A stretch of DNA of 64,000 bases from Candidatus Sungiibacteriota bacterium (GCA_016186145.1 JACPMF010000009.1:17505-81504), one strand, 5' to 3'; positions 1,081 to 53,622 are shown, counted from the first letter of the stretch. Numbers and translations: made by a program. Notes: generated from the sequence alone by a model not told the origin.

Positions 1081-1353
1081 ATGACCGAATATGGAAAGCG
1101 GAAACTGCTCTGGCTATCTATCTTTTTACTGCTTGTAAGCGTGTTTTTCTGGTTGGAAGAGCGTGGAGCTCCTGGCTGGAAAACTGGCGTGGCCTTTCTA
1201 TCAATGGCTGTTGTTGCTACTATTGATTTTTACCTTGAAAAGAGCAAAGCATTCAGACTTTCCTATGCTGCTTTCTCTCTATTCTTTTTGGGTTATGCAC
1301 TTTTCTATCTATTCTCTTTGCTTTATGCAATCAAAAACTTCCTGGCCAATTAA
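1081..1353 (+). CDS. small integral membrane protein
   Basis: AGGAGA RBS 7 nt before the ATG at 1081. Two or three hydrophobic helices. Followed by a long poly-T tract (1360-1378). Confidence 0.4.
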   Translation: MTEYGKRKLLWLSIFLLLVSVFFWLEERGAPGWKTGVAFLSMAVVATIDFYLEKSKAFRLSYAAFSLFFLGYALFYLFSLLYAIKNFLAN

Positions 1354-1742
1354 GGGCCTTTTTTTTTTTTTTTTTTCTTTATCCGCCAATACTCCGCGTC
1401 TCTGCCGGAACCGGAGCCTTTTTTGGCATTTTTGCGCATTAATTCTGCCGGATATTTCTTTTCGACGTAATCAAGCTTCCTGTTGACAGTGCCCGCCGTA
1501 TCGATATCCAAAAGGACCGCCATCTGGATGGCGTAAATCAAAACATCGGCCAATTCCTTTTTCACCTCATCTACCAACTCTTTGCTTCGCCGTACCTTCT
1601 CCAATTCGAGATTTTCCCATTGGAACAGCTCAAGAAGCTCGGCACCCTCGATCATAATTGATTTCGCCAAATCAGAAGGCCGAAGGTGGTTCCAGCCCCT
1701 TTCTTGAAGAAAGCGTTTAATCCTTTTCTCTAATTTTTCCAT
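1350..1742 (-). CDS. MazG-like nucleotide pyrophosphohydrolase
   Basis: All-alpha MazG signature (EE..EL.E...W.......EL.DVLIY.I..A..L.ID.......K...N..KYP). Confidence 0.6.
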   Translation of the reverse strand: MEKLEKRIKRFLQERGWNHLRPSDLAKSIMIEGAELLELFQWENLELEKVRRSKELVDEVKKELADVLIYAIQMAVLLDIDTAGTVNRKLDYVEKKYPAELMRKNAKKGSGSGRDAEYWRIKKKKKKKGP

Positions 1743-1793
1743 TTTTTATTCGGCCAGTTATTGATTTGTAATTTGGACTTTGTAATTTGGAAT

Positions 1794-2309
1794 TTAGGTT
1801 AAGTACCCCATCTCCTTGAGAACCTTTTCAAAAAGGCCGATTGCTTGCGCGGCGCGGTGCTTGCTGACCGTACGATCCGGAGAGTGGGCGATATCGTTTC
1901 GAACGCGATGCGCCTCCCATAAATCGTCAAGCGAAGAAAGGCGCCCTTTGTCCAAAGTACGCATACGCTCTCCCATTGTTTCACCAACAAGCCCCATTTC
2001 TTTCAAAATACTATCAACGATTGAATCCGCCTGAATAACGGCAAGATTCCAATCGGCAGGATTTTCCGACCCGAGTTTTTTAAGAACCTGCTGCCACGGC
2101 TCTTTCATGGCATTCGGCGCTACGGCTTTATCGCCGGTTTTTGCAAATCGCGGTTTGCTGTAAGGCGAGATCTTCCTCACAATAACAACCATTGCGGCAA
2201 TGAGTCCAAGGGAAACAAGCGCGGAAATAGTCCGCGCCCAAAAGAGAAAGCGGGGCCAGTCATAAACAGTGAAGTATTCAATTATGCGATAGTAAAAATC
2301 GGAAAGCAT
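1794..2309 (-). CDS. membrane-anchored protein with HEPN/DUF4145-like C-terminus
   Basis: N-terminal TM segment. The C-terminal LSSLDDLWEAHRVRNDIAHS fits an Rx4-6H HEPN-like motif. Confidence 0.35.
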   Translation of the reverse strand: MLSDFYYRIIEYFTVYDWPRFLFWARTISALVSLGLIAAMVVIVRKISPYSKPRFAKTGDKAVAPNAMKEPWQQVLKKLGSENPADWNLAVIQADSIVDSILKEMGLVGETMGERMRTLDKGRLSSLDDLWEAHRVRNDIAHSPDRTVSKHRAAQAIGLFEKVLKEMGYLT

Positions 2310-2333
2310 ACTTTAAAACTTTAACCAGTTGAA

Positions 2334-3803
2334 TCAACTCTTCCGGCCCTGCTCAAACGTATATGCCGCTGACAGGATAGTTGTCTCATCAAACCACTTC
2401 CCGATAAACTGCAACCCGACCGGAAGGTTCTTTTCTTCGCGCTCAACCGTTCCGCAGGGAAGGGATAGCGCCGGAATACCGGCCAAATTTACCGCAACCG
2501 TATAGATATCAGCCAGATACATCTGCAACGGGTTTGCCGTTCGCTCCCCAAGGCGAAACGCAGGCGTCGGCGACGTCGGCCCGACAATAATATCAACCGT
2601 TCGAAAAGCGCTCTTAAAGTCCTCTTGGATCAGGCGTCTCACCTGCTGGGCTTTGTTGTAATAAGCGTCATAATAACCCGCAGAAAGCGCATAGGTGCCG
2701 AGCATGATTCTTCGTTTAACTTCTGCGCTAAAACCGTCTGCTCGTGTTTTTGCGTAAACTTCATATAAATTTTCCGCGTCTGTCCGCGATTGAGAGTGTC
2801 CGCATCTGTCCGCGATTGAGAATCCGTATCTTATGCCGTCGAACCTCGCGAGATTAGCAGAAACCTCTGCAGGCATAACCAAATAATAAACCGGGAGAGC
2901 AAGACGCGCATGCGGTAAACTTATTTCCTGAACTTCCGCGCCGAGGCGAGTTAACTCCGCAATGGCCTGATGTATTCGCGCCCCCACATCACCCTCCAAG
3001 CCCTCACCAAAATACTCTTTCGGAACGCCCACTTTTAACCCACGGAGCGACCCTCTTCTGTCTAATACAAACGGTTTCGTCTCGACTGTTGTCGCATCAT
3101 AACGGTCGCGCCCCCGAATTGCTTCGAAAAGAAGCGAAGCATCCTCAACGGTCTTAGTGATCGGGCCAATCTGGTCCAAAGAAGATGCCATAGCAATGAG
3201 GCCGTGCCGCGATACTCCCCCATAGGTTGGCTTTAAGCCGACCACGCCGCAAAAAGAAGCCGGCTGACGGATTGAACCACCCGTATCTGACCCGAGCGCT
3301 GCCAGGGCAAGATCCGCGGCAACCGCAGCCGCGGACCCTCCGGAAGACCCCCCCGGGACTCGTCCCAAATCATACGGGTTTCTGGTCGGCCCAAAAGCTG
3401 AATTCTCGGTAGACGATCCCATTGCAAATTCGTCCAAATTTGTTTTTCCCAAAAATACCGCTCCCGCATGTTTTAATTTTTCTATCACCGTAGCGCTGTA
3501 TGAAGCGATATATGGTTCAAGAATTTTTGACCCGGCCGTTGTCTTTGTTCCGCGAATAAGTATGTTGTCTTTTACCGCAATCGGCATGCCCATCACCGTG
3601 GTATCGATTTCTTCGGCGCCGATTTTTTCATCGATGCCATCCGCCTGTCGCAGCGCCTCTTCTTCAAAAACGTCAAGATAAGCACGAATTTCTTCATTCT
3701 TACCTTTGATATTTTTAAGATAATGCGAAACAACCTCTCGACAGGAGAATTTTTTTGCTTTTAAGCCAGAAACAATTTTTGTGATAGTAAGATTTTCCAC
3801 CAA
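2334..3803 (-). CDS. gatA: Asp-tRNA(Asn)/Glu-tRNA(Gln) amidotransferase subunit A
   Basis: Amidase signature GGSSGGSAAAVAA...GSDTGGSIRQPA and full-length collinearity with GatA. Contains a 17-bp direct repeat (2779-2795 / 2805-2821) that encodes a ~9-aa insertion. Confidence 0.92.
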   Translation of the reverse strand: MVENLTITKIVSGLKAKKFSCREVVSHYLKNIKGKNEEIRAYLDVFEEEALRQADGIDEKIGAEEIDTTVMGMPIAVKDNILIRGTKTTAGSKILEPYIASYSATVIEKLKHAGAVFLGKTNLDEFAMGSSTENSAFGPTRNPYDLGRVPGGSSGGSAAAVAADLALAALGSDTGGSIRQPASFCGVVGLKPTYGGVSRHGLIAMASSLDQIGPITKTVEDASLLFEAIRGRDRYDATTVETKPFVLDRRGSLRGLKVGVPKEYFGEGLEGDVGARIHQAIAELTRLGAEVQEISLPHARLALPVYYLVMPAEVSANLARFDGIRYGFSIADRCGHSQSRTDAENLYEVYAKTRADGFSAEVKRRIMLGTYALSAGYYDAYYNKAQQVRRLIQEDFKSAFRTVDIIVGPTSPTPAFRLGERTANPLQMYLADIYTVAVNLAGIPALSLPCGTVEREEKNLPVGLQFIGKWFDETTILSAAYTFEQGRKS

Positions 3804-4260: not shown

Positions 4261-6679
<2,419 letters not shown>

Positions 6680-19364: not shown

Positions 19365-19483
19365 AATCCCGTTAGAGATAGGAAATGCCGCAGGCATTTC
19401 CGTTGATTATGATTGGTATAATGGCTTTCAGGCACATAATGCTGTTGGGTGGCCAAATAAAAAGTTTAAATCTCTAACGGGAT
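19365..19483. mobile_element. MITE-like hairpin element, copy D (ATAAAtcccgttagagata ... atctctaacgggATAAAa)
   Basis: Inverted termini with the 5-bp flanking direct repeat ATAAA; the interior holds the sub-hairpin ggaaatgccgcaggcatttcc. Lies between pilM and comF. Confidence 0.55.
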
Positions 19484-19502
19484 AAAAACTGCAAAAACAG
19501 CT

Positions 19503-22414: not shown

Positions 22415-22636
22415 TTATAATGAAGCAACAAGCGCCCCGCGTCCAGTAAATCGTCGAGATATCTTTTTTAGTTTAATCGCTTCATCGGCTTCCGCTTCTT
22501 TTTTTTGCCATTCAGGAGTCCAAAACCACTTTTCGTCTAAATTAACCCTTACTGACTTTCTCCATTTAGAAAACGCCTCAAATTCTTTATGAGGAATCAA
22601 AACAAACTTTCCTTTTGGAATAGTGATAACAGTCAT
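22415..22636 (-). CDS. putative antitoxin (paralog of 24735-24968)
   Basis: MTVITIPKGKFVLIPHKEFEAF..WRKSVRVNLDE.WFW.PEWQKKEAEADEAIK; ~85% identical to the antitoxin upstream of RelE at 24472. Confidence 0.5.
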   Translation of the reverse strand: MTVITIPKGKFVLIPHKEFEAFSKWRKSVRVNLDEKWFWTPEWQKKEAEADEAIKLKKISRRFTGRGALVASL

Positions 22637-22695
22637 GATTTTAGTATACATATAAACCGATAACAGTCAAATAAAAAAGGAAGCGTGACGGCTTC

Positions 22696-22932
22696 CTAAG
22701 AATAACTTTGATCGCTTTTTACATACTGAATTACGTCGTCGACGTGTTTCCAAAGTCCTATGCTTAACCCAACACCAGTCACCGCTGCGATAGCACTGAA
22801 TCCAAACACGTTATTTTCACTTACTGCGAAAACTGCTAAACTGCCGAACACTAATACAATGACAAATTGTGCTACTGCGGCGAAAACTATTTCCGCCGTA
22901 ATCCTAGCCCTTCTTAACTTTGTACTCACCAT
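22696..22932 (-). CDS. small membrane protein
   Basis: 78 aa, two TM helices; rho-independent terminator (aggaagccgtcacgcttcc + T run) right after the stop. Confidence 0.35.
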   Translation of the reverse strand: MVSTKLRRARITAEIVFAAVAQFVIVLVFGSLAVFAVSENNVFGFSAIAAVTGVGLSIGLWKHVDDVIQYVKSDQSYS

Positions 22933-22951
22933 TTGCCCCTTCCCTTTTTGA

Positions 22952-23281
22952 CTATCTTACCCGCATCCATGAACCGTCTTTCCTGCGGCGATATCTTCGC
23001 TTTTCATTTTGAACTAAAACTTTATCCATCTCCCGATCAGTGTTAACGCCCAAAATCTCAAGAAACCCGAGATCAAACACCATCAGATCAATTAAAGCGT
23101 TAATAACCTTACTGCGGTTTCCTCTCCTATGCGCGGCGGCAAGTTCTCCGAGCTCTTCGACAAGGTGGACAATCTCTTCACGCACACCATTCCGGCTTCT
23201 ACTAACATTAAAACCTTTTGCAACTTTATTTCGGTATATTCTTCGCTGCAGCAACTTAAGATGGCCGCACCCTTTGCTCAT
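22952..23281 (-). CDS. MazG-like small nucleotide pyrophosphohydrolase (tentative)
   Basis: EEIVHLVEELGELAAA...ALIDLMVFDLGFLEILGVNTD.E...V..N.KR pattern resembles the MazG all-alpha NTP-PPase fold. Confidence 0.4.
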   Translation of the reverse strand: MSKGCGHLKLLQRRIYRNKVAKGFNVSRSRNGVREEIVHLVEELGELAAAHRRGNRSKVINALIDLMVFDLGFLEILGVNTDREMDKVLVQNEKRRYRRRKDGSWMRVR

Positions 23282-23411
23282 TAACTAATCCTCCTTATAT
23301 CGTAAATTTCTTGCAAAGAGCTGTCACTTTCTTACTCGTACTATTTTTACTATTTCCTGTCAACGTTTCGTAAATCAACCCTGCAATTTCTTTCATCGCC
23401 TTTTCTTTCAT
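23282..23411. repeat. diverged copy of glyA 3'-terminal module, copy 2
   Basis: Collinear with 25362-25481 at roughly 75% identity (by-eye estimate). Confidence 0.6.
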
Positions 23412-23493
23412 CCCGTTACAAAATTTACATAAGTCATTTACGAAATATAACCATTTTTAGTCTAAAAAAACAAAATTCAATCAAAGATCTTGT
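23411..23493. mobile_element. hairpin element H (tcccgttacaaaatttaca ... tgtaaattttgtaacggga)
   Basis: 19-bp perfect inverted repeat sharing the TCCCGTTA core; a half-copy lies at 21048-21074. Confidence 0.45.
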
Positions 23494-23561
23494 AAATTTT
23501 GTAACGGGATTCGTGCCTAACTGTTGTGGCAACGAACGGCGTCACAATATAAAGCCGGAGG

Positions 23562-23828
23562 TTATTGATAAATGTTGCTCGCACGGCGCAGTACTTCTTT
23601 AATTTCAACAACGCCTGCGCCAGTCCGTATGGAATAAAAGATGCGATAATTACCTACACGCCTCCGCCATAAATCATCTCTCTCGCCAATTTTAGCGATA
23701 TCTCCCAGCCACGGATCGATAACAAAATCGCGAAGCGCGTTTAATATACGTTCGCGATCGCGGATAGGTAGACGTTTGATTTGTTTTTTAACGCGTTTTG
23801 GTATGTGTACGACCCAGCTCATTTTCAA
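23562..23828 (-). CDS. RelE/ParE-family type II toxin
   Basis: ...VGNYRIFYSIRTGAGVVEIKEVLRRAS is a typical RelE/ParE C-terminus; overlaps the upstream antitoxin. Confidence 0.7.
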   Translation of the reverse strand: MKMSWVVHIPKRVKKQIKRLPIRDRERILNALRDFVIDPWLGDIAKIGERDDLWRRRVGNYRIFYSIRTGAGVVEIKEVLRRASNIYQ

Positions 23829-24024
23829 AATCTTCTAAAGTCACATAAGCGCCGTGCACCAGTTCCTTATCGCTTTTTTCAATGGCCCGCGCCTCTTTTT
23901 CGCTCAGTTTTACAACCGAAATAACCTTAGGCCGCCTACGAAGGAGTATTTCGTACTCTTTTCGGGGAATCACAACAAGGTCATCTTTACGAGCTAACTT
24001 TTTTGGAATAGTAATAATAGCCAT
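23788..24024 (-). CDS. putative antitoxin (AbrB/SpoVT-like ITIPKK motif)
   Basis: MAIITIPKKLARKDDLVVIPRKEYEILL; overlaps the RelE-like gene. Confidence 0.5.
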   Translation of the reverse strand: MAIITIPKKLARKDDLVVIPRKEYEILLRRRPKVISVVKLSEKEARAIEKSDKELVHGAYVTLEDFENELGRTHTKTR

Positions 24025-24092
24025 GAATAAAGCATACAAGAAACAACAATATAAAGTCAAACAAAAAAGGAAGCGCGGCGGCCTCCTAATAA

Positions 24093-24338
24093 TCAAAGAT
24101 CTTTTTTAGTATTCAAACCCCTTTTAAAAACCAACATTCCCATAAAAACGGCCCAGACACCTACTAATGTTCCAAAAGTCTGCCAAAGAAACTCACTGGA
24201 GTAAACAGAACCTCTATGCCGTAAAATGTAAATCCCCCCTCCGGACAGAGACATGCCGAAAATCATTAAAAGAAACCAAACAGTCCCCAATAAAAATATA
24301 GTCGTACCACTATAAATTCCGAGCCTCCTCATGGTCAT
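24093..24338 (-). CDS. small membrane protein
   Basis: GGAGGG RBS; two TM helices; 81-83 aa. Confidence 0.4.
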   Translation of the reverse strand: MTMRRLGIYSGTTIFLLGTVWFLLMIFGMSLSGGGIYILRHRGSVYSSEFLWQTFGTLVGVWAVFMGMLVFKRGLNTKKDL

Positions 24339-24344
24339 GGTCAA

Positions 24345-24466
24345 ACCCTCCTATATTGAAAATTTTCTGCAAAGAACTTTAACTCTCATACTCGTAGCAC
24401 GGAGGTTATGCATCGTCAACGCTTGATAAATCAGCCAGCGATTTCTTTCATCTGTTTTTCTTTCAC
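24345..24466. repeat. diverged copy of glyA 3'-terminal module, copy 1
   Basis: Ends conserved with 25362-25481 (ATGAAAGAAA... / ...AGTTAAAGTTCTTTGCAG...ATATAGGAGG); the centre is diverged. Confidence 0.55.
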
Positions 24467-24471
24467 CCGCC

Positions 24472-24732
24472 TCATTTCCTTTCGCGGTTCAAAATATCAT
24501 GGGTACCTGCGCGGCGAAGAATTATCGTTTGGTTATCAAGTTGAAAAGTGAAACGATACCCGCGGCTTATACGCGCATACCAAATCTCTGTGCCGGGAAG
24601 TTTCTTTGCGCGAAGTGAAGAATGCCGAATGTTTTCTAATAAAAATCCGAGCGCCTTGCCAAGCGCTCGTTGAATATTCTGCGGCAAATCTTTATAGTCT
24701 CTTTTAAACGGCCCCGTATAGACAATCTCCAT
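24472..24732 (-). CDS. RelE/ParE-family type II toxin
   Basis: ...YRFTFQLDNQTIILRRAGTHDIL, a typical ParE/RelE fold signature. Confidence 0.7.
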   Translation of the reverse strand: MEIVYTGPFKRDYKDLPQNIQRALGKALGFLLENIRHSSLRAKKLPGTEIWYARISRGYRFTFQLDNQTIILRRAGTHDILNRERK

Positions 24733-24734
24733 TT

Positions 24735-24968
24735 CTATTTACGCTTTAGTGAAGCAACAAGCGCATTGTGTTTAGTAAATCGCCGGGACATTTTTTTTCG
24801 TTTAATCGCTTCATCAGCCTCGGCTTCTTTTTTTTGCCACTCCGGAAACCAAAACCATTGTTCATCCAAATTAACCCGTACTGACTTTCTCCATCTAGAA
24901 AACGCTTCAAATTCTTCGTGAGGAATCAGAACAAATTTCCCTTTTGGAATAGTAATAATTTTATTCAT
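24735..24968 (-). CDS. putative antitoxin (ITIPKGKFVLIPHEEFEAF...)
   Basis: Paralog of 22415-22636; 3 nt upstream of the toxin. Confidence 0.5.
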   Translation of the reverse strand: MNKIITIPKGKFVLIPHEEFEAFSRWRKSVRVNLDEQWFWFPEWQKKEAEADEAIKRKKMSRRFTKHNALVASLKRK

Positions 24969-25035
24969 AGATATTTTATTATACCGAAAATATGAACTAA
25001 AAGTCAAACAAAAAAGGAAGCACGATAACTGCTTC

Positions 25036-48859: not shown

Positions 48860-49110
48860 CTACGCGGGGGCAAGCCCCCGCGGTTTTTAAGGATGACTCT
48901 GCCCCGCTCAAATTTTGCTTCGTGAGCCAAAGCGAAGCGCTTCGCCAGAAATGCGGAATGCGCCTATTCGGCGCGCGCTTCGCTCTATTCTAAAGTTTTA
49001 ATGTTGATTTAGTAAGGACGGCATTGCAAGGTGAAAGCAAAATTTGAGCGGGGTTAGCCCTCGTGCTCCGCCATTCACCGCGGCGGCAAGCCGCCGCAGT
49101 TTCTGGCGGA
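48860..49110. repeat. complex repeat: 20-bp inverted repeat gccccgctcaaattttgctt ... aagcaaaatttgagcggggt, flanked by two related GC hairpins
   Basis: Perfect 20-bp IR ~110 bp apart; each flank has a GC-rich hairpin (cgcgggggcaagcccccgcg / gcggcggcaagccgccgc) followed by ..ggaYKactctgsc. Confidence 0.5.
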
Positions 49111-49350
49111 CTCTGGCTAAAAGGCATCATCAAAAAGAAAAGCAAAAATGAGCAATGGAAAAGCAAACATCCCGATAAGCATGTTTGACTCCCACCGCTC
49201 GTGGGCAGAAAAGCCTTTCGACCGTCGCTCGCTTGAAGGCGACCTTTCGCTCATATTCATTGAAACTATAACACGAAGAAATGGATAAGATAAGGGGATT
49301 TTAGTAGAAAATTTTGAGAAGCGCCCGCGAAGCATGGTATAATAACGCCA

Positions 49351-50109
49351 ATGGCACTCGAATTTGAACTCAAAAAACTTGGATTTTCCGACAAGGAAGC
49401 GAAAGTCTACCTTGCCCTCCTGGAACTCGGCGCCTCACCGGTACAGCCGGTTTCGGAGAAAGCCGGGGTAAATCGCGCAACAACCTATGTGGTACTGGAA
49501 ACCCTCCGAAGCCGCGGGGCCGCCAGTACTGTCGAGAAAGAAGGCAAAACAATGTTTATCGCGGAAAGCCCGCGCACTCTTTTGCGGCTCTTCCGCGCGC
49601 AGGAGCAGGAATTAAAAGAGAAGCAAGAGGCATTCAAAAAAGTTCTCCCGGAACTTGAAGCGGTCTTCAACATCGCGACCGGAAGGCCAAAAGTAAAATT
49701 CTTTGAGGGGCCCGAGGGAGTCCGGGCAGTCCGAGAAGACATTCTGCAATCGGGAGCAAAAATCCTTTATGACATCTATTCCCTTGAATACGTCAACCAG
49801 ATTATGTCTCTTTTTTCCGAAGAGGAAGTAAATGAATATGTAAAAAGACAACAGGAAGCCGGAATGACCATAAAATCCCTCTATACCAGCGAGACCGGCC
49901 CATCTACCGAATTCAAACTCACCGGCGAGCGCAAATTCTTGCCAAAGGAAAAATTTCCTATTGCTGGCGACATTTTAATCTACGAAGATCGGGTCTCCCT
50001 TACCACGCTTCGCGGCAGAATCATGAGTGTAATCATAGAGAGTAAAGAGATCGCCGACACCATGCGGCTTGTGTTTGATCTTGCTTGGCTTGGCGCTGAC
50101 CATATTTAA
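49351..50109 (+). CDS. TrmB-family transcriptional regulator
   Basis: N-terminal wHTH (EAKVYLALLELGASPVQPVSEKAGVNRATTYVVLETL..RG), TrmB-like C-terminal domain. TATAAT 12 nt before the ATG (near-leaderless). Confidence 0.65.
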   Translation: MALEFELKKLGFSDKEAKVYLALLELGASPVQPVSEKAGVNRATTYVVLETLRSRGAASTVEKEGKTMFIAESPRTLLRLFRAQEQELKEKQEAFKKVLPELEAVFNIATGRPKVKFFEGPEGVRAVREDILQSGAKILYDIYSLEYVNQIMSLFSEEEVNEYVKRQQEAGMTIKSLYTSETGPSTEFKLTGERKFLPKEKFPIAGDILIYEDRVSLTTLRGRIMSVIIESKEIADTMRLVFDLAWLGADHI

Positions 50110-50581
50110 ACTACCAAAGCACTACTAAATAAGTTCGGCCCGGAGCGCAGATTTTCGCGCCCCGGGCCATTTTGCGTTTCTACGAACATATCAGAACCGC
50201 AGACCGCTTCGATCAGAGATTTTTCCAAAAGAACGAACCCAATCTCGAGCATCAAAATCAGCCCTTACTTGGATTCGCCCATCGGACACCTCCTTTCGCT
50301 CTTGATACGACATGCCTAGGGTTCGTAGGTGTAGGGCCGGTCCGCCAAGGTGCAGCGGACCAAGCCCCATCCCTTAGGCATCGCCCACGATCGCCACCCC
50401 CTCTCAAGCCAGAATTATCTCCATTATAGCTGATTGACAACTTCTTGTCAATGTATCTTAACAAAACATCTTTGCTTTGCAGTCACTCGTATCACATACT
50501 GCGCTGACATTTCCTTTTGGCAAAAAATTGGCTTAAAATATCAGTTTTTTGAGCCATGTCCATAGAATTTGTTAAAAGGGC

Positions 50582-50610
50582 TTGACAAAGTTTTTAGATA
50601 GGTATATAAT
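50582..50610 (+). promoter_or_regulatory. consensus sigma70-type promoter (TTGACA - 17 bp - TATAAT)
   Basis: Exact match to both hexamers with a 17-bp spacer: cTTGACAaagtttttagataggtaTATAATtac. Confidence 0.6.
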
Positions 50611-50617
50611 TACTTTA

Positions 50618-51330
50618 TAACAGTACCTTGCCAGGAAATTATTCCTGCCAAGTGGCGTGCGGCTAAAGGATTACAAGCCGAGCCCTTGCGGACATTATGG
50701 AACCCGGGAATAAACAACATTATGTATCCGCCACAGGCGGATCAGTCCCGATCCGTTCCAAGAGTGCCGATTTTAGTCCTTTACTCGCATCATTCTTGGC
50801 AGGAATAGCTTATCACCCGCTCTCTTGAGCCATGGGAACACTAGCCCCGCACCAATTTTGCCTTATCAAACCGTAGGTTTTGTAAGTAAAAAGGAGGGGC
50901 AAAACACTTGAGCGAAGTGCGTGTGCCGGAACCCCGCAGTAGAGTAAGGCTCACTACGGGGCAAGTAGGCACGGATTCTGAAATAAGGGCGACCTGCCCC
51001 GTAGGGAACGCGAAGCGTTATCCTTCGGGGAGCACTTCGCCACAGAGTGGTAATGCAAAATTGGTGCTGGGGTATTTTCAAAATAGGCCCGATTTTAATA
51101 AAGGGCAGGCCCTTCGAGGACCAATGGCTCAAAAGAACGGGTGATTAGTTCAACTTTTAAAGAAAGGGTAGAGGTAACCCCCGATGAAGTTGCGGATAAT
51201 TCGCGGCAAGGAGAAACGGATTCCGATCCGTCTTCCGTTGCCGCCGGTTGGACGCCCGCATAGCACGCCGAAGGGCGCGCGTGGGTATAATCGTTCTGAA
51301 ACGCGGCGCCTGGAACGCGCCGCAAAGGAG
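50618..51330 (+). ncRNA. candidate structured non-coding RNA / very long leader downstream of the consensus promoter
   Basis: No convincing ORF for ~700 nt. Many local and long-range complementarities (e.g. cctgccaag/cttggcagg 140 nt apart; atccgccacaggcggat). Class not recognised. Confidence 0.3.
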
Positions 51331-51337
51331 GGACGTG

Positions 51338-51631
51338 ATGAGTGATCAGAAGGTGGTGATCGAGGTGTTCGCATGTGGCGCCTGTCATGCCGTGAAAGGC
51401 ATGGCGAGCACGATGTTCAACACCACGATCGACGGCCGGCGGCTGATCTTGTGCCGCCGCGACGCGGCGTCGGCGAGGACGAATGGCCTGAAGGTCTTTC
51501 CCCTCTCGGCCACGCTCGCGCGCGACGCGCGACAGGCCGCGGCTCGCGAGGCCTCAAAGGACTTCTGGGCCGACTTCGGTCGCCGAAAGACCGAAAAGGC
51601 CCTGCGGCGACCGGCGATCCGGATCACGTAG
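51338..51631 (+). CDS. hypothetical protein (very GC-rich)
   Basis: AAAGGAGGG RBS 5 nt before the ATG; 97 aa; composition is foreign to the rest of the window. Confidence 0.35.
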   Translation: MSDQKVVIEVFACGACHAVKGMASTMFNTTIDGRRLILCRRDAASARTNGLKVFPLSATLARDARQAAAREASKDFWADFGRRKTEKALRRPAIRIT

Positions 51632-52117
51632 CGCCCGCTCTCGGTTAACGCGGATATCGCGGGCAGGAAACCCGCGGTGGGACGCGAAGCGTCTCCGAGA
51701 GCAAGAGTCCATCCCGCAAACCAGCGGGATTCCCGAGGCGGCCCTGGGTGCGACGTCTCCCAGGCAAACCGAATGCTCTGCCGCCACAGAGCGTACCCGG
51801 GAAACCATTTGCCGCGAATTGGGGCGCGGCATTGGGAAATTGGAGCCGCTGGCGAGGCGGGTAAGCGCGAGGGCATTTCGCCCCGCGACCGAGACCAATG
51901 AAGGATTCTCATCTCCCCTTCACGCAAGAGGATGGCGTGGGCAACGCGTGCCGCCCGCCGCCCCAACCGGGGCCTGCGGAGCGAGTACGGCCAAAGGGGC
52001 GAGCCAGCGGAAAGCCGCGGCCGCCCCATCCTCCGTTCTTCCGAGTTTCTTATTCCAATGTTCTTGAGAACATTGGAATAAAGATTCGGAAGAGCGAAAG
52101 CTCAAAGTTCTTTTGAC

Positions 52118-52243
52118 ATGAATCCCGTTAGAGATATGAAACTTAAATCTTTTTATGCGAAACTAACAGCAATTGTTAGTTCATAAGTTGCCAGATAGTC
52201 AAGATGTGGAAACCTTAGGTTTCCTATCTCTAACGGGATGAAG
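52118..52243. mobile_element. MITE-like hairpin element, copy E (ATGAAtcccgttagagata ... tatctctaacgggATGAAg)
   Basis: Perfect 14-bp termini, ATGAA direct repeat; the right-hand ATGAA supplies the ATG of the ORF at 52238. Confidence 0.55.
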
Positions 52244-52477
52244 AGGGCAAAACCCGTCTTCAGGTTCGTGGGTGAACCACGGCCGGGCGTCCGGGCCCAG
52301 CTCGAGATCGCGCTCGCGGTCCAGTCGTTCTTCTTCTCGGTCACCGAGAAGGGGCTGGATCGAGCGGCAATCGAGCAGGAGCTCGGAAAGGAGCTCTCCG
52401 ACCTCAAGGCGCAGATGCGCGTCCTCGAGGTGGAAGTCTCCGGCCCTGCGTGGTTTGCCGAACTCTTCCGCTCGTAA
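52238..52477 (+). CDS. hypothetical small protein (GC-rich)
   Basis: 79 aa; start codon within the target duplication of element E. Confidence 0.3.
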   Translation: MKRAKPVFRFVGEPRPGVRAQLEIALAVQSFFFSVTEKGLDRAAIEQELGKELSDLKAQMRVLEVEVSGPAWFAELFRS

Positions 52478-53048
52478 GGGGAAGAGGCGGACCTAGTCGG
52501 TGCCTGCGGTGTCCGACGATAAATCCCGCGAAATCGGGATCCGCCTCTGGCGGAAAACAGGCTAGGAGAGCCATAGAAACGACAAAACTCTCCGCTGGTC
52601 GAGTGAATTCTGATTCTCGACCGCTCTCCAAAGTTTTCAAATCATTCTGAAAGTTTTGGTGGGACAAAACTAGAGGCATAAACCCATACAAAGGAGGAAT
52701 CCATGGAATGTTTGATTTGCGGGGACAAACCCCTGCAGCTGCCCTTGCCCAGACTGCGGCCAGCCGTATCGTGAATGCGGCGACTGCGGGCAAGCGTATT
52801 GCGGTTACCCCGACTACGGGTGCAACTGCTAATAAACGGAGGGGGGACATTCCTTTCCGTGAAGCGGACGGCGAGAATATCCGTCCGCTGTTCTTCCGAG
52901 TCCATCTCATCTATTCTCAAATTCTTAAGAATTTGAGAATGAAGATTGGTTCAGAAGAGCAACAGACACTCTTCCAACAAAACGGTTGAAAAACCTCAAA
53001 AGTATAGTATAATAATGACGTCTTTGCGTGAGACGACTTATTAAAATT

Positions 53049-53099
53049 CCCCCCGTAGCTTAACGGATAAAGCAGCGCTCTTCCCCGCCTGCCAAAGTT
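53049..53099 (+). other. tRNA-like 5' half (acceptor + D-arm) upstream of tRNA-Arg
   Basis: ccccccg-ta-gctt-aacggata-aagc resembles the tRNA 5' end. Its 7 nt are perfectly complementary to cgggggg at 53219-53225. Confidence 0.35.
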
Positions 53100-53171
53100 G
53101 CCCCCGTAGTTCAATGGACAGAACAGGGGCGTTCTAAGCCCTTGATGTGGGTTCGATTCCTACCGGGGGCG
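53100..53171 (+). tRNA. tRNA-Arg (TCT)
   Basis: Manual fold: acceptor gcccccg/cgggggc, D-stem gttc/gaac, anticodon loop gtTCTaa, T-arm gtggg-ttcgatt-cctac. Confidence 0.8.
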
Positions 53172-53226
53172 ATGGCAACGGCGCGCAGGTAAGGCGTTGA
53201 TGGGGGTTCGATTCCCTCCGGGGGGA
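53172..53226 (+). other. tRNA-like 3' half (anticodon-stem 3' strand, variable region, T-arm, acceptor 3' strand)
   Basis: ...aggcg-ttgat-ggggg-ttcgatt-ccctc-cgggggg-a; pairs with the 5' half at 53049-53099. Confidence 0.35.
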
Positions 53227-53292
53227 TTTTGATCTAATTAAAATACCGTTGTGTGAATTTTTAAAAACAAAACTAGTGCTTAGTTGCACTAG

Positions 53293-53622
53293 TTAAACCG
53301 CTCCGGGCCAAGGGCCAAGTGGGGTATGATCAATTTTTTCACATTCGGTTCCCGTATTTTGATATAGACAGTAACTGTCCACTACCTCATAAGGGTAAAA
53401 TTTTCTATTGCCATTATCATTAACGACTGAGATTCCATATAGACTTCCCCAACCAGAATAACTTCCGCTTAACTCTTCACCGTTTCTTAAAGCAACTGAT
53501 ATATGTGTAGAGGGAAGGCCAGTAACGAAACCGATCATTATGCCACCAAATACTGCAAGTATTAAGGCGATAGTGCAATATAAACCGGCGTTACTGTTGA
53601 TGAACTTACGGAGCTTGGGCAT
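53293..53622 (-). CDS. membrane-anchored hypothetical protein
   Basis: N-terminal TM helix (LYCTIALILAVFGGIMIGFV), 109 aa. Confidence 0.35.
   Translation of the reverse strand: MPKLRKFINSNAGLYCTIALILAVFGGIMIGFVTGLPSTHISVALRNGEELSGSYSGWGSLYGISVVNDNGNRKFYPYEVVDSYCLYQNTGTECEKIDHTPLGPWPGAV

Follow-up and report, generated by a model that had tools for sequence, protein, structure and literature searches.

Conserved stem-loops set between cistrons are known from the RNase III sites of phage T7 and from the repetitive extragenic palindromes and bacterial interspersed mosaic elements (REP/BIME) of enterobacteria. Sites of the attC type are characterized by the core sequences RYYYAAC and GTTRRRY. 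Clusters of attC sites that lack an integrase have been termed CALINs (PMC4889954). Bacteria of the Candidate Phyla Radiation (CPR) have tiny genomes, in which very few regulatory RNAs or mobile-gene systems have been characterized, and the literature on CPR structured RNAs or Patescibacteria integrons yielded nothing relevant. The locus analyzed here lies in a stretch of 64,000 nucleotides from a Candidatus Sungiibacteriota bacterium (GCA_016186145.1, JACPMF010000009.1:17505-81504), referred to as the window, and consists of a TrmB-like regulator gene, a divergent pair of promoters and an array of small genes with intervening hairpins, designated H and P (Table 1). It is a conserved chromosomal locus of Candidatus Sungbacteria and related Parcubacteria, previously undescribed, which we interpret, with moderate confidence, as an array of small genes that is strongly transcribed under the control of the regulator and carries elements acting at the RNA level.

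Two sequences in the window match the sigma-70 consensus at 12 of 12 positions, against 0.03-0.04 expected, and both are located in this locus. An earlier reading of the window, made from the sequence alone (the sequence-only reading), had described the plus-strand promoter, which is indeed exact (TTGACA-17-TATAAT, 50582-50610); its minus-strand twin (50451-50423) and the RNA behind it, poor in open reading frames (ORFs), had been overlooked. The orthologous loci were retrieved by means of the TrmB-like protein, with identities of 86, 80, 70, 69, 67, 64, 59 and 58%, plus one of 41%. A divergent promoter pair was detected 3' of the TrmB gene in each orthologous locus of 58-86% TrmB identity (11-12 of 12 consensus positions), and was absent from the locus with 41% identity. 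In all of the orthologous loci that have the pair, the two -10 boxes are separated by 185-197 nt. The genes located 5' of TrmB vary among these loci (RuvC/YebC, a PMT glycosyltransferase, GyrA, a serine recombinase, or a pentose-phosphate operon), and the retention of the promoter pair while these upstream genes differ argues for the interpretation given above. In most loci the -35 box TTGACA forms the right half of an inverted repeat, TGTYAA-N6-TTGACA; most of the 10 listed loci have this form at each of the two promoters, and in L003 it is imperfect (L numbers denote related loci and contigs).

The regulator itself is well defined. Its N-terminal TrmB-type winged helix-turn-helix scored 56 bits against PF01978 (cut-off 25.6), and the profile of the family matched PDB entries 3qph (TrmB; E = 2e-6) and 5bqt (TrmBL2). 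An AlphaFold2 (AF2) model with a pLDDT of 90.7 was matched by Foldseek over its full length to TrmBL2 (5bpd, E = 1.7e-13), and also to TrmB (3qph, 1e-9) and to the TrmB sugar-binding domain (2f5t, 7e-5). The full-length TrmB architecture is present, namely winged helix-turn-helix, coiled coil and PLD-like effector domain; by inspection of the sequence, the PLD-like C-terminal domain of the protein shows no HxK motif. From this confident full-length match to archaeal TrmBL2/TrmB we infer that the protein regulates both promoters. It would bind the TGTYAA-N6-TTGACA repeats over both -35 boxes, thereby switching the two promoters together.

The left promoter would yield an RNA of ~290 nt, the layout of which is the same in all of the orthologous loci, and in which two strongly initiated mini-ORFs appear to be the sole conserved features. 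Outside the mini-ORFs, the nucleotide identity to L005 is just 62%; a consensus fold of the RNA revealed nothing conserved apart from the two mini-ORF blocks, and a match in Rfam was not found. The first block follows the pattern Shine-Dalgarno, (A/G)TG GGN GAY NNN, stop. With a Shine-Dalgarno sequence, it is kept in nine lineages as MGD[ASG] (MGDGW in L019); GAT alternates with GAC, and GGC with GGT or GGA, all synonymously, either ATG or GTG serves as the start codon, and each of the three stops (TAA, TAG and TGA) occurs. The second follows the pattern AAAGGAG(G), (A/G)TG GGN GAR, 0-9 codons, stop; in eight lineages a strong Shine-Dalgarno sequence precedes MGE, 0-9 further residues and a stop, with GAA/GAG variation. 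Since the changes are only synonymous and all three stop codons are used, the blocks are probably translated, rather than constituting an RNA motif. Codon 3 shows a curious regularity, in that it encodes Asp in one mini-ORF and Glu in the other.

The right promoter would yield a long mRNA, the 5' part of which is a conserved, highly structured leader of ~335 nt, when an insertion described below is left out. Window positions 50371-50841 align with L005 1740-2213, and 51074-52078 with L005 2214-3188. Leader part A shares 92.6% nucleotide identity with L005, without codon periodicity, and can also be aligned to L008, while the TrmB gene shares 80.6% with L005, 111 of 147 differences falling at third codon positions; the leader is thus the most conserved segment of the locus. 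Folding of 50612-51340 gave a minimum free energy of -303.5 kcal/mol (z = -10.5 versus shuffles), with nested long-range helices I1, I2, I3 and I8, which bears out the long-range complementarity noted in the sequence-only reading. The reverse strand comes close to this stability (z = -8.7), because long near-perfect helices dominate the structure. A consensus fold of three leader sequences comprised 82 pairs, with 91.8% of the cells paired, and nine pairs were changed on both sides, versus 3.3 +/- 1.4 in shuffles and 0-4 in slid controls, a count drawn from 3 sequences only. The I2 stem is best supported (21 pairs, 95% paired across the three sequences, with three compensatory pairs). This comparison is supportive of a structured leader, but thin. 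An ORF within the leader (50697-50828) does not qualify as a gene: its frame is closed after 12 codons in L008, and versus L005 its amino acid identity (76%) is lower than its nucleotide identity (93%).

In the window, the apical loop of I2 holds a 233-nt element, MITE-A, which by sequence comparison is a MITE-like (miniature inverted-repeat transposable element) insertion. It has terminal inverted repeats and no ORF, its site is empty in both L005 and L008, and a ~160-nt element sharing its termini occurs elsewhere in L008 (3388-3547). It is present as a single copy in the window, with TA on both flanks as read from the sequence. The leader of this genome would thus have been enlarged by a tolerated inverted-repeat insertion in a hairpin loop. 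Of the ~700 nt of structured RNA originally described behind the promoter, the conserved leader stood, and the remainder proved to be this insertion and a coding sequence, ORF1. The ORF-free stretch, which had been thought to reach 51330, ends at 51183, where a conserved 53-amino-acid ORF (51184-51345) follows. The second insertion, MITE-B, has terminal inverted repeats of 14-15 bp and occurs twice in the window, with GA/GA flanks at 52122 and TT/TT flanks at 19365-19485. The copy at 52122 sits inside the start region of ORF3; if it is excised together with one GA, the sequence reads ATGAAGAGG directly after the tail of the first H copy, the same ORF3 start as in L018. A transposase was not found for either element.

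The long mRNA would carry a series of small GC-rich genes: ORF1 and ORF2, which appear to be translationally coupled, ORF3 and a Cys-rich peptide. In the sequence-only reading the overlapping ORFs of the GC-rich block had looked spurious; not all of them are, and ORF1, ORF2 and ORF3 have homologs. ORF1 is very basic. The small family of which it is part has the core HST[PE]KGARGY[SN]R and corresponds to no Pfam or NCBIfam family; the amino acid identity of ORF1 is 73-90% in L005, L008 and L018. A scan of the metagenome_contigs set with the ORF1 alignment returned only one contig, already known. ORF2 has homologs in L003, L005, L008, L018, L026 and L027, as well as P0123-P0131, and a family of 93-131-amino-acid proteins; the codon-position bias of ORF2 is 25/24/43. 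A word-indexed search with ORF2 alone returned only itself; an exhaustive search recovered the small family and two giant repetitive proteins, the latter being set aside, and the ORF2 alignment was too divergent for pattern scanning. Its AF2 model (pLDDT 83) displays zinc-ribbon-like beta-hairpins and a long helix, with no significant Foldseek match in the PDB and weak likeness to zinc-ribbon ribosomal proteins, the UPF1 CH domain and the Lsr2 dimerization domain. Both ORF1 and ORF2 are under purifying selection. ORF3 matches L018 4342-4584 (37% identity over 79 amino acids, E = 1e-12), without family hits.

The Cys-rich ORF contains 13 Cys in 42 residues, and its frame is split by an extra C (+1 frameshift) in the CCCC run at 52730-52733, which may reflect a sequencing error, a pseudogene or programmed frameshifting. 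Comparable Cys-rich small ORFs are found at L003 5707 and L027 ~1092. A 214-amino-acid minus-strand ORF (51385-52029) was ruled out by frame-breaking indels versus L005 that cross it. A distant ORF1-like protein of 51 amino acids (L028 6906-7061), with the core HSTKKGARGYSR, is encoded between two CBS-domain genes and HSP20 and GYD genes, on a contig without the array locus; this neighborhood hints at a stress-related function of the ORF1 family.

Two hairpin motifs, H and P, recur between the genes; two copies of H and one of P occur within the 64 kb, all at the array. The sequence-only reading had reported two perfect palindromes, which exist (52050-52081, 15 + 2 + 15; 52913-52940, 14 + 14), 8 nt to the right of where it had placed them, and form the tips of the two H copies. 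In general, H has a base stem GCTCTTCCGAG...CTCRGAAGAGCG, followed by AAAT...CGCTC. Its 17 copies, in the window and seven relatives, are all located 3' of the plus promoter wherever the contig includes that promoter, and all share one orientation; the base is conserved, and the tips, unrelated in sequence, are always paired. The P motif consists of GTCGAG..CTCGAC, followed by CCCACCAAAGNTTTC...GAAAGTTTTGGTGGG, and closes a conserved 173-nt intergenic element, which nhmmer matched to L022 (E = 4e-20), where TrmB is only 58% identical, and to L003 (1e-12); partial copies occur in L018, L026 and L027. P exhibits seven compensatory pairs and an invariant plus-strand G.U, and folds better on the plus strand (-161 versus -136 kcal/mol, summed), which points to a function as RNA. 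H and P may act on the transcript, through processing, 3'-end protection or translational control.

The composition of the array is distinctive. In windowed analysis, GC is 0.65-0.69 over 51250-52000, versus a background of ~0.46, so that the peak of the island postulated at 51200-52900 is real, but its continuity is not: ORF1, ORF2 and the non-coding block have 60-68% GC, ORF3 63% and 52478-52833 51-59%, with breaks at the first H copy (39%) and MITE-B (36%). In seven lineages the ORF1-ORF2 module has 56-68% GC, while TrmB on the same contig (five lineages) has 36-49%. Since the module is GC-rich in all of the lineages, the compositional anomaly is a property of the module rather than of this one genome. 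Between ORF2 and the first H copy, the segment 51632-52030 consists of blocks nearly identical to L005, its only homolog found. Seven of its nine indels are not multiples of three and differences show no periodicity (25/18/15), so it would be non-coding on both strands, or a decayed gene. In the comparison of the two sequences, its predicted fold kept two pairs after double changes, and kept six and broke 15 after single changes, equal to shifted controls.

Table 1. Coordinates of the features of the locus (window positions; a dot denotes no strand).
Feature	Positions	Strand	Basis or further detail
TrmB/TrmBL2-like winged-helix regulator gene, 252 aa	49351..50109	+	Pfam PF01978, E = 3.6e-15
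Predicted transcript of ~290 nt from the minus promoter, without long ORF; intrinsic terminator stem 50169-50136	50128..50417	-	Promoter and terminator scan
Mini-ORF 2, AAAGGAGG - 6 nt - ATG GGC GAA TCC AAG TAA = MGESK*	50265..50282	-	Conservation
Mini-ORF 1, GGGGGTG - 6 nt - GTG GGC GAT GCC TAA = (M)GDA*	50374..50388	-	Conservation
Perfect sigma-70 promoter TTGACA-17-TATAAT, firing leftwards	50423..50451	-	Promoter scan; 12/12 or 11/12 in orthologous loci
Inverted repeat TGTCAA-N6-TTAACA spanning the -35 box of the minus promoter; candidate operator	50446..50463	.	Read from sequence
Inverted repeat TGTTAA-N6-TTGACA spanning the -35 box of the plus promoter; candidate operator	50570..50587	.	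Read from sequence
Perfect sigma-70 promoter TTGACA-17-TATAAT	50582..50610	+	Promoter scan
Leader part A: hairpin I1 with sub-hairpins, 5' arm of hairpin I2	50617..50841	+	Conserved, predicted structured
MITE-A, 233-nt insertion with 27-bp terminal inverted repeats (I3), in the apical loop of I2	50842..51074	.	Empty site in L005 and L008
Leader part B: 3' arm of hairpin I2, ribosome-binding region of ORF1	51075..51183	+	I2 stem pairing
ORF1, 53-aa basic protein, core IPIRLP..R.HST[PE]KGARGY[SN]R	51184..51345	+	HYW90_03055; homologs P0132-P0143
ORF2, 97-aa protein, 8-nt overlap with ORF1	51338..51631	+	HYW90_03060, identical hypothetical protein in a Candidatus Sungbacteria metagenome-assembled genome
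Conserved segment, putatively non-coding, GC 68%	51632..52030	+	Comparison with L005
H copy 1, base GTTCTTCCGAG / TTCGGAAGAGC, tail GAAAGCTCAAAGTTCTTT	52035..52096	+	Tip 52050-52081
MITE-B, 118-nt AT-rich insertion with terminal inverted repeats ATCCCGTTAGAGAT	52122..52239	.	Second copy 19365-19485 (-)
ORF3, 79-aa protein	52238..52477	+	L018 4342-4584
Conserved intergenic element, putative RNA, 173 nt, closing with P (CCAAAGTTTTC...GAAAGTTTTGG)	52494..52666	+	nhmmer
Cys-rich small ORF (MECLICGDK / PCSCPCPDCGQPYRECGDCGQAYCGYPDYGCNC*), 1-nt frameshift	52703..52833	+	Read from sequence
H copy 2	52887..52961	+	Tip 52913-52940

Several observations weigh against a transcribed array with RNA-level control. 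Both transcripts are predictions. The covariation in the leader comes from three sequences, and in one of these, L008, the outer I1 stem is lost; the fold of 51632-52030 lacks comparative support, and the segment could be a decayed gene. A by-eye tally of H showed a recurring plus-strand C.A mismatch in 7 of 14 copies; the energy bias toward that strand is weak (-430 versus -404), and a role as RNA is for these reasons less secure for H than for P. The small ORFs belong to no family in Pfam, NCBIfam, PHROGs or PADLOC, and their products are without assigned function. Finally, the high identity of some blocks could mean recent exchange, rather than constraint; two relatives that show such a block are set out below.

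The modules downstream of the plus promoter differ between relatives, and their similarity ends exactly behind the 3' arms of H and P; the hairpins thus mark the places where interchangeable modules are joined. L014 and L022 share 73% identity over TrmB and leader and 94% over a downstream block of 800 nt, the block to which the preceding caveat applies. L014 has the order H(a)-85-aa gene-H(b), while in L022 H(a) is joined straight to the sequence that follows H(b), with the switch point exactly between GAAGAGCG and AAAT; L022 contains an additional 1.2 kb between two identical 44-nt copies of H. Similarly, L018, L026 and L027 have ORF1-ORF2-P in common at 82-88% and diverge completely right after P, L018 carries a 160-aa gene between two identical copies of P, and in L026 and L027 the stop codon of ORF2 falls within the P hairpin. 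The simplest explanation of these junctions is homologous recombination between regulatory hairpins that are present in several copies; H and P, being repeated, could thus also serve as points of gene-module swapping between lineages.

A possible, though not a probable, alternative is an integron-like cassette platform without IntI, in which the twin promoters form the platform, each cassette consists of one or more small ORFs with a 3' H or P hairpin, and site-specific recombination acts at the hairpin on folded DNA, drawing on a GC-rich cassette pool common to CPR lineages. ORFs with a 3' palindrome and presence/absence junctions at the palindrome edge, as used to recognize integrons and CALINs, are found in L014/L022 and in L018, L026 and L027, and the repeat-bounded segments of L022 and L018, the position of the ORF2 stop codon and the 94% versus 73% identity would all be expected of cassettes. 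The strong promoter ahead of small, apparently promoterless ORFs, the conserved bases, variable centers and single orientation of the hairpins, a cassette GC unlike that of the host in every lineage, and the frequent breaks of public assemblies within the locus likewise favor this explanation. However, no integrase is adjacent: the sole tyrosine recombinase in the window is Xer-like (PF00589, 40946-41863) and lies 8 kb away. By sequence inspection, the edges of H (arms GCTCTTCCGAG / CTCRGAAGAGC) and P (arms CCAAAGTTTTC / GAAAGTTTTGG) lack attC R-box cores, and two unrelated hairpin families would demand two specificities. Ordinary homologous recombination between 40-80-nt repeats of 88-100% identity gives the same junctions, and the invariant G.U and plus-strand bias of P point to RNA. 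Moreover, integrons are generally absent from very small genomes (PMC4889954), which also counts against cassettes here. A variant specific to CPR bacteria, in which the TrmBL2-like regulator and the promoters are fixed and GC-rich mini-cassettes would be captured, excised and exchanged among lineages at the hairpin edge by some recombinase, is as tentative; so is the proposal, within that variant, that the divergent two-minigene RNA is a conserved, translated part of the control circuit. In L019, a large serine recombinase gene (1179-2411, minus strand; Resolvase, Recombinase and Zn_ribbon_recom domains) adjoins the TrmB-like gene upstream, in divergent orientation, a single case of relevance to the cassette explanation.

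A free-standing large non-coding RNA is unlikely. In that explanation the leader (50617-51183), perhaps with 51632-52030, would be processed into a stable RNA and act in trans, the ORFs being incidental cargo. It would account for the leader being the most conserved segment, with its very low folding energy and some compensatory pairs; in L015, moreover, the plus promoter drives only ~270 nt, followed by a terminator-like hairpin and an unrelated gene with its own -10-like sequence. Such an RNA would be a new class: at the gathering threshold, Rfam matched only tRNAs in the window and in 11 related loci, and at E <= 10 over 50000-53400 nothing beyond hairpin-to-miRNA noise. Riboswitches, large RNAs of the OLE, GOLLD, ROOL and HEARO kind, group I/II introns, 6S RNA, tmRNA and RNase P were thus all without a match at threshold. 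Against a free-standing RNA, no terminator was found between the leader and ORF1 in the window, and there is purifying selection on ORF1 and ORF2. The leaders of L011, L014, L022, L019 and L018 are equally long and GC-rich, but similarity to the window leader was undetected and they had no Rfam match; thus no single RNA is conserved across the loci that share the promoters. Of the guesses offered in the sequence-only reading, a large RNA with cargo came closest, in that a conserved structured leader precedes small genes; the leader is, however, ~335 nt long without the insertion and would be the 5' part of an mRNA for real proteins.

A recently acquired foreign island beside the tRNA (degraded prophage, plasmid or integrative element) is largely refuted. 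Its GC lies 15-20 points over that of the genome, a tRNA with duplicated halves marks the right edge, and two MITE-like insertions are present. The TrmB-like gene and tRNA-Arg(TCT) (53099-53172) do flank the block, as had been proposed, but in relatives the block travels with TrmB, rather than with the tRNA, while the other neighbors differ: in L022-L024, which represent one relative assembled through the whole array, the array end adjoins a gene for an HU-type DNA-binding protein, without a tRNA. No integrase and no PHROGs or PADLOC hits were obtained, other than weak helix-turn-helix-level PADLOC hits to TrmB, and scans of viral contigs for H, P and ORF1 were empty. The module is GC-rich also where the TrmB gene has 36-49% GC, and the window, at 46% GC, is not part of an AT-rich genome as had been supposed. 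The flanks are of a housekeeping nature within about 8 kb, with pseudouridine synthase, ribosomal protein L19, a NUDIX protein and tRNAs upstream, and a patatin-like gene, L10, L7/L12, FtsX, an FtsE-like ABC ATPase and a release factor downstream.

An assembly chimera joining GC-rich DNA of another organism, to which the abrupt change in composition and the many public contigs ending inside the locus might point, is highly improbable. It is contradicted at the left edge, where two independent Logan contigs from other runs (L001 and L002) match the window without a difference over 49048-51012, and at the GC rise, across which L005, representing another sample and strain, stays collinear with the window from TrmB to 52078. 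L008, L018 and L003 have the same GC-rich genes 3' of the same promoters.

The contig ends form a pattern in their own right: L001, L002, L005-L010, L016, L017, L026 and L027 all end inside the locus, within MITE-A, leader part A or an H palindrome, and most of the close TrmB homologs are on contigs of 1-5 kb, which suggests repeats or strain-level heterogeneity. In L003, a contig labeled as Saccharibacteria, an N-gap with poly-G, poly-C and poly-T flanks lies in the leader (4990-5130), and that part is unreliable.

Just past the second H copy, and 5' of the tRNA genes, a further promoter matches at 11 of 12 positions (TTGAAA-16-TATAAT, 52986-53013). A plus-strand terminator was undetected between the array and this promoter, and read-through from the array into the tRNAs is therefore possible. 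The tRNAs themselves are nested (53049-53227): an insert of ~110 nt, which holds the complete tRNA-Arg(TCT), separates an outer 5' half (acceptor CCCCCCG, D arm, anticodon stem) from an outer 3' half (anticodon stem, T arm, CGGGGGG-A). The arms of the insert, GCCTGCCA and TGGCAACGGC, pair and lengthen the outer anticodon stem, and the outer and inner halves are 76-86% identical. ARAGORN recognized the joined outer halves as a tRNA, the anticodon of which varies with the chosen join (Arg-TCT, Gly-TCC and others). The arrangement could be a tRNA that is split or carries an intron, but also a pseudogene that has been disrupted or an artefact of the assembly. Elsewhere in the window, an ORF-poor stretch at 22.4-25.0 kb was rejected as non-coding DNA. 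By eye, small minus-strand genes at 22415-25007 resemble toxin-antitoxin pairs, in which RelE/ParE-like proteins of 86-88 amino acids have partners of ~80-100 amino acids, with near-identical paralogs at 22415-22651 and 24735-25007; this cluster explains why ORFs of at least 120 amino acids are lacking there.

The locus thus combines the two strongest-looking promoters of the 64 kb, both conserved across Sungbacteria-like lineages, with at least three putative RNA elements outside Rfam (leader, H and P), two small-protein families outside Pfam, and an unusual predicted RNA whose conserved parts are just two reading frames of 4-7 codons. The modules behind the promoter vary between close relatives, with breakpoints exactly at hairpins. 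A dedicated mechanism, if true, would be a new way for ultra-small genomes to hold a variable, highly expressed gene pool. On the more conservative reading too, that of a regulated small-gene array, the locus offers covariance models and metatranscriptome checks of CPR genomes something concrete to target.

Among the known systems, integrons and CALINs (Cury et al. 2016, PMC4889954) share with this locus a promoter ahead of small, mostly unknown, promoterless ORFs, units that end in an imperfect palindrome with conserved ends, a variable center and a single orientation, units that are present in some relatives and absent from others, the junctions lying at the 3' palindrome edge, and a composition unlike that of the host. 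In contrast to them, the locus has no IntI, its hairpins lack attC R/L boxes and belong to two unrelated families, P seems to be constrained as RNA, the platform gene encodes a TrmB-type regulator, and the host, a CPR bacterium, has a tiny genome. Hairpin-punctuated mRNAs (T7 RNase III sites, REP/BIME) resemble it in the conserved stem-loops between cistrons of a strongly transcribed unit, here a predicted one, in their plausible role as processing or 3'-end-protecting structures, and in that repeats can act as recombination substrates; by contrast, H and P are confined to one locus, rather than dispersed genome-wide, and no RAYT-type transposase was seen. The two insertions resemble MITEs in having terminal inverted repeats without an ORF, in the absence of one of them from the orthologous site and in the existence of other copies elsewhere, and differ in their very low copy number here (1-2), in short and uncertain target-site duplications and in that a parent transposase was not identified. 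Translated minigenes (phage lambda bar; the axe-txe minigene; PMC2490762, PMC8708949) likewise span just a few codons behind a strong Shine-Dalgarno sequence, on a short transcript, whereas here two mini-ORFs, starting Met-Gly-Asp and Met-Gly-Glu, are conserved across lineages on what would be a stand-alone, terminated RNA, with no downstream gene for regulation in cis. Finally, the regulator shares with TrmB/TrmBL2 of Thermococcales (PDB 3qph, 5bqt) the full-length fold of winged helix, coiled coil and PLD-like domain, and the size of TrmBL2; in contrast to these, it is a bacterial (CPR) protein, and its presumed target is a consensus sigma-70 promoter pair, rather than the promoters of archaeal sugar metabolism.

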